Below are positions 20,425 through 21,652 of a stretch of 23,528 nt of DNA, piece by piece (positions within the stretch are counted from its first letter, which is position 1; every line of letters starts with the position of its first letter). The notes below the pieces were generated by a model. It saw nothing but the letters and a program-made list of their open reading frames with translations. It did not search any database and was not told the origin of the DNA. The translations under genes and the position numbers were made by a program. This stretch comes from Myxococcota bacterium (lineage in GTDB: Bacteria; Myxococcota_A; Bradymonadia; UBA4248; JAVFAO01), in NCBI GenBank assembly GCA_034002465.1, contig JAVFAO010000065.1, forward strand, positions 1-23,528, read 5' to 3'.

Positions 20425-20664
20425 CTGCTGGTCAATAGTGCGCATCACCTGTGACGAAGAGGAGACGAGTTGCCCAGACCTCCCCAACCGTCATTTCACG
20501 ACGAGTCGCGTCTGGTGAGCTCGCTGATTTCCGAGTGTTCTTGAACTGTTTCCGCCAGCATCATTTCCCTGGTGCGAACGCAGGAAAAAAGATGCTCGGC
20601 GAGGCCAAGCATGTGCTACCATACGAGCTCACACTGCAAAGTGTGTCCTGCGCAGGAGTTGTCG

Positions 20665-21300
20665 ATGACGAAGTATGTAAGCGTCCCAGATAGTCTTGCC
20701 GAGCCCTTTGAGCGCTCCGAGGGTGAGGTCGCGCGGCTCTTCGAGCAGCTGCAACACTCGCCCGAGCGCGGCACCATTCATATAGGGGAGGATCGCTATC
20801 TTCTTCTCCGTTCGGAGAGCTTGTATTTGGCGCTCTTCGGGGCTTTGGAGGAGTCTTTTGGGCCGACGATGGCTGGGGAGTTTTTGTACAACGCTGCGCG
20901 GGAGCTTGGGCATAGCGATTCCGATGCGTTTGCGCGTCGGCACGGGCTTGGCGTGGGGGTGGAGCGCCTCTCCAGCGGGCCTGTGCACTTTGCTTTCTCA
21001 GGATGGGCTCGGGTGGAGATCCTCGAGGACAGTGTACCCGTCGCGAACGAATCGTTTTTCTTGCATTATCAACACCCGAACACCTTCGAAGCAGAGGTCA
21101 CCCTGGCCAGGAAAGGCAAGGCCGAGCATCCCGTTTGTCTCTTCAGCGCGGGTTACTCATCGGGCTGGTGTTCTGCCGCTTTTGGGTTAGAGCTACACGC
21201 GACTGAACAGAGCTGCGTTGCTTGCGGTGCTCCGCATTGTGAGTTCGTAATGGCCACCTTCGAACGCCTCGAGCGTATTCGTGGTGAACGTATTTCGTAG
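20665..21300 (+). CDS. V4R (4-vinyl-reductase-type) domain protein resembling the effector-binding A-domain of XylR/DmpR regulators, stand-alone.
   Basis: AGGAG 8 nt before the ATG at 20665 (ORF track begins at 20572). Conserved V4R cysteines ...CLFSAGYSSGWCSAAFGLELHATEQSCVACGAPHCEF. Codon usage is atypical for this window (many T/A-ending codons). Confidence 0.7.
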   Translation: MTKYVSVPDSLAEPFERSEGEVARLFEQLQHSPERGTIHIGEDRYLLLRSESLYLALFGALEESFGPTMAGEFLYNAARELGHSDSDAFARRHGLGVGVERLSSGPVHFAFSGWARVEILEDSVPVANESFFLHYQHPNTFEAEVTLARKGKAEHPVCLFSAGYSSGWCSAAFGLELHATEQSCVACGAPHCEFVMATFERLERIRGERIS

Positions 21301-21335
21301 GCTTGCGCTCTCAGAATCTACGCGGGAACGTTGAA

Positions 21336-21635
21336 ATGCGACTTGAGACGAATACGCTTCCAGAGGGCGTCGAGCTCTCTGAAACTGGCTCGGCAGTGTT
21401 TTCGATTCTGTCTCGATATACTGTTTTCGGGTGGGCTGTGTTGAAGGCTCAGTGTGATCGGGTTGGCATTTCTCCAGCGGCCTTGTCGGCGCGGCACTTG
21501 GAGATGCTCATCCCGTACCTTGCTCGGGGGGTCTCACGCTTCACCTCGCCGACGAAGGGGATGGCGGTCGAAGCCGATTTGGGGCGTTTGCTGCGGGCTG
21601 GAGCTGAGCGTCGACCAGCGCGTCCGAATCCCTGA
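21336..21635 (+). CDS. Small hypothetical protein co-located with the V4R gene (alternative TTG start at 21303).
   Basis: Begins 3-36 nt after the V4R stop and shares the low-GC3 codon usage of the V4R gene. No recognisable domain. Confidence 0.4.
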   Translation: MRLETNTLPEGVELSETGSAVFSILSRYTVFGWAVLKAQCDRVGISPAALSARHLEMLIPYLARGVSRFTSPTKGMAVEADLGRLLRAGAERRPARPNP

Positions 21636-21652
21636 TGGTTCCTGTGGCGCGT

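Follow-up and report, generated by a model that had tools for sequence, protein, structure and literature searches.

A stand-alone V4R sensor gene and its conserved small partner gene beside a vault-like gene of a Myxococcota bacterium

Why do two small genes with unusually T-rich codons lie beside a vault-like gene in a Myxococcota bacterium, and did they come from elsewhere? The locus belongs to a 23.5-kb contig (JAVFAO010000065.1) of a Myxococcota metagenome-assembled genome (MAG), here called the window when its whole length is meant, whose proteins are deposited as MDX9720650-MDX9720654 under locus tags RBU37_07875 onward. An earlier note on this DNA had seen in the two genes a recently acquired island, possibly a ligand-sensing module, consisting of a stand-alone V4R protein like the XylR/DmpR A domain and an open reading frame (ORF) of 100-110 amino acids (aa). 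In this work, we show that the V4R gene and the second ORF (orf2) are a widely conserved and tightly coupled gene pair. On balance, we lean towards the view that they form a self-contained signalling operon of two genes that is part of the native chromosomal gene pool in Myxococcota and in some other phyla. The coordinates and the content that the earlier note gave for this cassette are correct:

20440..20664, + strand: leader upstream of the V4R gene, T-rich and of lower GC; presumed promoter region and 5' untranslated region of the two-gene operon
20665-21300, + strand: V4R sensor gene, 211 aa; XylR_N and V4R domains, predicted zinc site Cys158/Glu181/Cys184/Cys192, invariant pocket of a non-phenol type
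21336-21635, + strand: orf2, the partner gene; 99 aa from ATG, 110 aa from an alternative TTG at 21303

The first gene encodes a stand-alone, full-length sensor domain of the MopR/PoxR/DmpR type, much as the earlier note had recognized. Pfam places XylR_N (PF06505; 33.2 bits against a cutoff of 23) at residues 25-120 and V4R (PF02830; 39.4 bits against a cutoff of 31) at residues 140-196, in this N-to-C order. A profile of 25 homologues covering residues 17-205 matched MopR (5kbe, E 1e-17), PoxR (5fru, 5.5e-15) and CapR (6iy8, 1.7e-12) in the PDB. Moreover, the AlphaFold2 (AF2) model of the protein (predicted local distance difference test, pLDDT, 84.7) had PoxR, MopR and DmpR at the top of the Foldseek ranking, with E 1e-13 and template-modelling (TM) scores of 0.69-0.77, and the archaeal V4R protein MJ1460 (E 4e-4), TRAPPC3/Bet3 (E 5e-4) and H-NOX far behind. 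A search of 5.8 billion proteins recovered 271 homologues of 210-217 aa, the best of them 58% identical, and many are labelled 'predicted hydrocarbon-binding protein' by JGI. Two more specific names scored far below their cutoffs, namely NCBIfam MobR, with 57.9 bits against 999 and only profile positions 7-188 of 544 covered, and BchJ (bacteriochlorophyll 4-vinyl reductase, TIGR02019), with 13.5 bits against an equivalog cutoff of 74.3. The 211-aa protein stops after its V4R domain and has neither an AAA+ sigma-54 domain nor a C-terminal helix-turn-helix (HTH), so that its output must act in trans.

The pocket of this protein was read by placing MopR residues, with their roles as given in PMC10715001, on an alignment of 66 full-length family members, archaeal ones included. 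The zinc ligands C155/E178/C181/C189 of MopR correspond to C158/E181/C184/C192 here and are invariant (66/66). The V4R protein probably forms a dimer that is stabilised by zinc and encloses a buried pocket. The dyad His106/Trp134, which anchors the phenol hydroxyl in MopR, is Phe109/His137 in all 66 members, and Tyr176 of MopR is replaced by Ala or Gly at position 179 in 63 of them. Because of these replacements, the ligand is not expected to be a phenol. Eight pocket positions are invariant throughout the alignment (P106, F109, V117, H137, Y164, S165, W168 and F194), while four others are nearly so or vary conservatively (Y135 in 65/66, L102 in 63/66, A115 and C169 in 62/66). The residues of this pocket differ from those of phenol sensors and are essentially invariant from Myxococcota to archaea, which suggests a single, common ligand; the V4R protein most likely binds one specific, widely available small compound, hydrophobic or weakly polar, and not a phenolic xenobiotic.

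For the second gene, a profile of the partner domain was built from small ORFs downstream of V4R homologues and iterated over the six-frame translations of 78 sequences, that is, the window, 72 genome loci and five further contigs, four of which duplicate the window or other loci. The domain adjoins V4R in 64 of these 78 sequences, which shows that the 100-110-aa ORF of the earlier note is a real gene. It mostly lies directly downstream of V4R, with a gap of -16 to +70 nucleotides (nt); overlaps of the called genes measure 4 nt in loci L078 and L079, and 16 nt in L004, and two look-ups seeded by partner proteins each hit a gene that overlaps the V4R end by 4 nt. The pairing spans Myxococcota, Oligoflexia, Edwardsbacteria, FCPU426, Firestonebacteria and one Thermoplasmatota archaeon. 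In an all-against-all clustering of neighbouring ORFs, V4R and its partner were the sole widely conserved pair, the next cluster being found in 10 loci at most.

Four loci have their single copy of the partner domain at the C-terminal end of a Hanks-type kinase of the Ser/Thr class whose gene adjoins V4R; this kinase gene precedes V4R in L045 and L047 and follows it in L049 and L052. The kinase was identified by Pfam (Pkinase) in L049 (E 7e-55) and L047 (E 9e-44), and in L045 and L052 it was read from kinase motifs in the translations. An apparent fusion of V4R itself with the partner, P0028 (303 aa), was discarded, its tail being an out-of-frame read-through.

The partner belongs to an undescribed family of small four-helix domains that travels with this V4R subfamily. 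There is no Pfam or NCBIfam match to orf2, and a word-indexed search with orf2 alone retrieved orf2 only; with an alignment of 36 sequences the same kind of search gave 23 proteins, all of them hypothetical. An exhaustive profile search of 1.84 billion representatives yielded only 120 members, and the partner is described nowhere in the literature that was searched. Members mostly measure about 80-100, 170-210 or 315 aa, corresponding to one, two or three copies of the domain, with two-domain versions in L003, L012, L015 and L017. The AF2 model of orf2 (pLDDT 87.2, predicted TM score, pTM, 0.77) has helices at residues 16-28, 32-43, 52-69 and 72-91, and Foldseek found no informative relative of it in the PDB, the globin matches standing at E ~1 and TM 0.3. 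Median isoelectric points are 5.5 for the V4R proteins and 8.2 for the partners.

The family is poorly called in high-GC genomes. Although 64 of the 78 sequences encode the domain, only 23 proteins were recovered by the word-indexed search, and calls are rare in high-GC Myxococcota; orf2 itself is recorded from Logan, JGI and ENA gene calls and does not occur among the NCBI-sourced proteins of this MAG. An assembly of the cassette from run SRR25572339 exists as well. Some candidate assignments were set aside. DUF7739 and Lac_Phage_Head scored below their Pfam cutoffs on partner proteins and were treated as chance, and the LysM-repeat proteins P0253 and P0254 were judged spurious members because only short stretches match. 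A TPR protein (P0257) and a DUF835 protein (P0221) were borderline matches in the search of representatives.

By its partner protein, the window is closest to a clade formed by L071-L073 and L076, with genome GC of about 0.60. In three Polyangia/Myxococcales MAGs (L071 6346-10429, L072 7004-10432, L073 6595-10432), an element of ~2.7-3.4 kb interrupts the V4R gene at codons ~73-77 (REFIYN). This element carries a tyrosine recombinase gene (Pfam Phage_integrase, 8e-23) and an ORF of 425 aa that matches no Pfam family, and it is flanked by direct repeats of 16-24 bp with the core GTGAGTTTATCTAC. Both halves of the V4R gene are intact and conserved in the three loci. The element may have integrated into V4R as an attachment site, or it may be an intervening element that can be excised. 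Truncated V4R matches were also found in L066, L075 and L077.

How might such a pair work? In the signalling operon that we favour, the V4R sensor would bind a small ligand in its buried pocket, and the ~85-aa four-helix domain, translationally coupled to the sensor, would be its direct binding partner and output adaptor. Ligand in the pocket would alter the interaction between the two proteins, and the partner would relay the signal. In the kinase-fused lineages, with the partner as the C-terminus of the Ser/Thr kinase, the signal would emerge as kinase activity; the free-standing partner of the window would act on a separate downstream target. We infer the physical interaction and its dependence on ligand from sequence and genomic context: an output through direct binding of the small domain is indicated by the kinase fusions, the translational coupling, the tandem duplication of the domain and the complementary charge of the two proteins. 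Moreover, tandem copies of the partner fit a partner that meets a dimeric sensor. V4R domains have been described as signalling in cis or in trans (PMC2253512), in agreement with this model. The ligand-sensing module suggested by the earlier note is a sound and plausible guess, which can now be sharpened.

Two results weigh against the signalling operon. Fourteen of the 78 sequences have no partner domain, most of them distant paralogues and archaeal loci (one, L059, ends too close to V4R to be judged), and the sensor-partner model does not account for the low GC content at third codon positions (GC3) of the cassette, which is treated below.

Other conserved neighbours of V4R were seen in particular lineages. 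In Asgard loci (Promethearchaeia; L064 4184-4693, L067 9504-9932, L068 8689-9081) the V4R gene is followed, in place of the four-helix partner, by a different conserved ORF of ~130 aa, with the shared motif GFV(A/T)T.GS.AG..L(I/L)(F/Y)YP and no significant Pfam match; its identification as Roadblock/LC7 was rejected, Pfam giving it no support. In a candidate-phylum subfamily, downstream of the pair come a conserved ~435-aa gene that belongs to no Pfam family and, after it, a gene with PFK and cNMP_binding domains (L078 4365-5663 and 6548-8279; L079 4401-5717 and 6574-8264), which is a lineage-specific extended context.

Taken at its broadest, the pair might represent a previously undescribed two-protein signalling system of Myxococcota, Oligoflexia, several candidate phyla and at least one archaeon. 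Such a system would sense one conserved endogenous ligand through an invariant pocket lined by His/His/Tyr/Trp/Cys, and a new adaptor domain would link it to eukaryote-like Ser/Thr kinases; the sensor gene of one clade is also interrupted by an integrase-bearing element, whose excision may restore the gene. We put this wider picture forward tentatively, and as a whole it is rather doubtful.

Regarding the composition of the cassette, the drop in GC3 reported by the earlier note is real. GC3 is 0.646 in the V4R gene and 0.610 in orf2, compared with 0.821 in the MVP-like gene, 0.761 in the SDR gene and 0.857 in the next gene (g14), and the T content at third positions (T3) is 0.26-0.27 in the pair and 0.05-0.20 in the other genes of the window. 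The statement that the flanking genes use almost only G/C-ending codons was overstated, these genes having 76-86% GC3. Taken together (312 codons), the two genes have GC3 0.635 and T3 0.266, both outside the range of 309 control blocks, each of 312 contiguous codons, that were drawn from the window's other 12 genes; these blocks have a mean GC3 of 0.783 (standard deviation 0.046, minimum 0.670) and a maximum T3 of 0.205. Additionally, when scored by the codon usage of the remaining genes, their synonymous codons have the lowest log-likelihoods in the window (-1.28 and -1.46, compared with -0.80 to -1.19). The drop is nevertheless moderate, since four other genes lie at 0.68-0.70 and the reference is a thin one of 12 genes from one window.

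The T-rich stretch of the + strand extends from ~20400 to 21600 and thus includes the leader, with GC 0.58 and T 0.20-0.21 from ~20400 on, whereas to the left of that point GC is 0.61-0.64 and T is 0.11-0.14. A sigma-70 scan found no sigma-70-like promoter in the leader upstream of V4R, and a search of 16700-21800 against Rfam returned just one sub-threshold snoRNA match, leaving the leader with no Rfam family.

The genes and spacer around the cassette are the following:

17171-20005, + strand: MVP-like gene, 944 aa; Pfam MVP_shoulder (1e-18), Vault_3 and Vault_4
20161-20312: tandem array, 36 bp x 4.2, within the 660-nt spacer between the MVP-like gene and the V4R gene
21653-22642, - strand: SDR gene, convergent with orf2 and 17 nt away from it

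At the other end of the window, the longest ORFs of a GAF-GGDEF gene (3371-4753, - strand) and of the PAS gene upstream of it (4581-5780, - strand) share 173 nt; the GGDEF gene probably begins further downstream in reality, and the two genes look like a signalling pair.

In relatives, the cassette is not poor in GC3, and the context of the pair differs between lineages. GC3 of the cassette is on average 0.06 above a rough local background in relatives and 0.147 below it in this window. Since the pair is not GC3-poor elsewhere, the low GC3 is peculiar to this genome and is not a trait of the family.

The explanation that survives best, and which we regard as a serious possibility short of a probable one, is that the cassette is native and that its low GC3 reflects weak selection on codons or GC3 in a lowly expressed, fast-evolving copy, with no transfer involved. 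The genes of the window already range from 0.68 to 0.86 in GC3, a large heterogeneity within one genome. The V4R protein of the window sits on a long branch, with a mean identity to the core family of 0.507 as compared with 0.591 among core members, and yet it retains 66 of the 69 columns that are at least 90% conserved, as expected of faster evolution under retained constraint. In the clade L071-L073 and L076, moreover, GC3 of the cassette is ~0.06-0.10 below the background in three of the four loci; in the fourth, L073, the partner gene alone lies lower. On the other hand, the pair is at or above the local GC3 in most relatives, and an explanation by low expression must therefore be lineage-specific.

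Because the deficit is not shared by the family, it may also stem from an older event of transfer or replacement, with a Myxococcota lineage of lower GC as the source. The isolation of the V4R protein, and of the MVP-like protein alike, is ambiguous in this respect, as it fits a deep, vertically inherited lineage about as well as an old transfer.

We consider it unlikely that the cassette is a recently acquired island, that is, a 1.2-kb V4R-orf2 unit from a lower-GC donor which has not yet ameliorated and which would be foreign here while serving the same sensor function. Its codon composition, extreme for the window and unlike that of relatives, favours such an origin, and so does the variable genomic context of the pair between lineages. 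Genomes with GC3 of 0.60-0.70 also match the codon usage of the cassette slightly more closely (-1.25) than its own window does (-1.34). However, a donor search by codon likelihood over ~60 locus backgrounds only mildly favoured genomes of 57-60% GC and singled out no donor; the best homologue is only 58% identical, and the V4R protein of the window is about equally distant from all its relatives. This equidistance fits vertical descent in an isolated lineage, the MVP-like protein likewise being only 63% identical to its nearest relative. Additionally, the margin below the lowest native genes is small.

The hallmarks of mobility point the same way. No tRNA gene, integrase or transposase was found in the 23.5 kb, and Pfam identified no mobility gene in the window (amylase, GAF-GGDEF, PAS, Mfd, Hsp33, TPR, MVP-like and SDR proteins were recognized), a negative that is limited by four proteins with no Pfam match (g4, g6, g7 and g14). 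The edges of the cassette have no direct or inverted repeats beyond chance; the longest word common to both low-GC3 edges measures 9 nt, which is the level of chance. The earlier note had the cassette bracketed by a tandem array on the left and a hairpin on the right. The array is real, but no boundary hairpin was found, the only palindrome to the right (21808-21839) sitting inside the SDR coding sequence. In fact, the 36-bp unit of the array, CAAGAAGTTGGGAGAACAGGCCAAGCGCCCAATGGA, which holds a CCCAA...TTGGG inverted repeat, occurs in 4.2 copies downstream of the MVP-like gene and in single copies at 17073-17144, just upstream of that gene, and at 8760-8789, between g4 and g5. The unit is a repeat dispersed among intergenic regions; it brackets the MVP-like gene and not the V4R cassette, and it marks no border of an island.

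Gene order in relatives adds little. The MVP-like gene has 41 relatives in metagenome contigs, whose loci lack the cassette, but these are only 53-63% identical and share none of the other neighbours found in the window; the TPR, Hsp33, SDR, g14 and g5-g7 genes likewise show no synteny with V4R or MVP in relatives. As these relatives are too distant, the missing synteny is uninformative on insertion. With a conserved pair and with no mobility gene, tRNA or edge repeats found in the window, the region shows no hallmark of a mobile island, and the recent acquisition claimed by the earlier note is unproven and is not supported as it was stated.

Two further alternatives concern the function of the pair. 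The V4R protein and its partner could be a split transcription factor, with V4R as the sensing part and the small, mildly basic helical partner binding DNA, a version in trans of the control exerted by regulators of the XylR/DmpR type. We judge such a split factor improbable.

As for a link with the vault-like gene, the V4R pair lies on the same strand, 660 nt downstream of it, and the pair could be imagined to sense lipid or hydrophobic cargo and to regulate the assembly of a vault-like particle, with V4R as a prokaryotic relative of the TRAPP subunit Bet3. The SPFH/Band_7 family resembles the MVP shoulder domain, and genes of this family adjoin V4R in L004/L005 and in L045 and lie at a distance of ~3 kb in L002/L008. 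A structural relationship links V4R with Bet3/TRAPPC3 (PMC2253512, PMC10933270), and the Foldseek match to TRAPPC3 reflects it. However, a phmmer search with the MVP-like protein of the window against six-frame ORFs found no MVP homologue within 10 kb of V4R in any of the 72 genome loci, and V4R or the partner was found near none of the 41 metagenome MVP loci, of which only ~14 extend at least 3 kb downstream of MVP. Band_7 genes occur near V4R in three distinct loci only (phmmer with two Band_7 proteins), and the 660-nt spacer, since it holds the repeat array, has room for an independent promoter. Linkage of the pair to MVP or Band_7 being largely ruled out by this reciprocal survey, a joint function with the vault-like gene is very improbable; the adjacency is accidental and, as the earlier note had put it, the link is only positional.

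Our results chiefly correct the earlier reading: the GC3 deficit is genuine, but the region cannot be shown to be an island, and it is unrelated to the vault-like gene. The location is an ordinary one, and the modest novelty consists of the conserved partner domain, its fusions to kinases and the non-phenol pocket of the V4R subfamily. To our knowledge, stand-alone V4R proteins are common, and hardly any information exists about their signalling targets. What is new here is a dedicated and unannotated partner domain, absent from Pfam and in some lineages fused to a kinase; its adjacency to V4R and its kinase fusions provide a concrete and testable output route for one large V4R subfamily. Given the invariant non-phenol pocket, this subfamily should not carry the label of a sensor for aromatic pollutants or 'hydrocarbons'.

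Among known systems, the A domains of MopR, PoxR and DmpR/CapR (5KBE, 5FRU, 6IY8) are the nearest, sharing the XylR_N plus V4R fold over the whole 211 aa. The Cys-Glu-Cys-Cys zinc site is common to MopR and to the protein of the window, where metal binding is predicted from the alignment, and several pocket positions are shared or conservatively changed (MopR P103, V114 and Y161, corresponding to P106, V117 and Y164). The His106/Trp134 dyad and Tyr176 belong to MopR, whereas the family of the window has Phe109/His137 and Ala/Gly. Moreover, MopR, PoxR and DmpR continue into an AAA+ sigma-54 domain and an HTH, both of which are lacking here.

Stand-alone V4R proteins (COG1719; MJ1460, PDB 2OSO/2OSD) are thought to bind a hydrophobic ligand and to act on a separate effector (PMC2253512), a way of working that the protein of the window would share. 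The subfamily differs from MJ1460 by its XylR_N half and by its dedicated, conserved partner gene, and it is because of this extra half that the protein of the window is nearer to PoxR/MopR than to MJ1460. V4R proteins also occur in small conserved clusters of non-photosynthetic bacteria, delta-proteobacterial lineages included (PMC10151467). The pre-PcyA/BBAG bilin clusters and the cyanobacterial slr0144-slr0149 cluster resemble the present pair in having V4R within a small conserved cluster. Those clusters, however, contain two V4R proteins, an Fe-S protein and the globin-like BBAG, often with a heme oxygenase, none of which is conserved near V4R genes of the window type, and the partner described here is a four-helix protein, not a globin.

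The arrangement of the pair is close to that of Af1503/Af1502, in which a receptor with no effector of its own is translationally coupled to a small four-helix STAC protein. STAC proteins of the Af1502 kind are four-helix bundles of two alpha-hairpins, an architecture also predicted by the orf2 model. The LGPx(x)A motif between helices 1 and 2 of STAC is absent from the orf2 family, whose loop has the consensus F-P-W-P instead. The associations differ as well: STAC is found with SLC5 transporters or two-component systems, whereas the partner family is the neighbour of V4R and fuses to Ser/Thr kinases.

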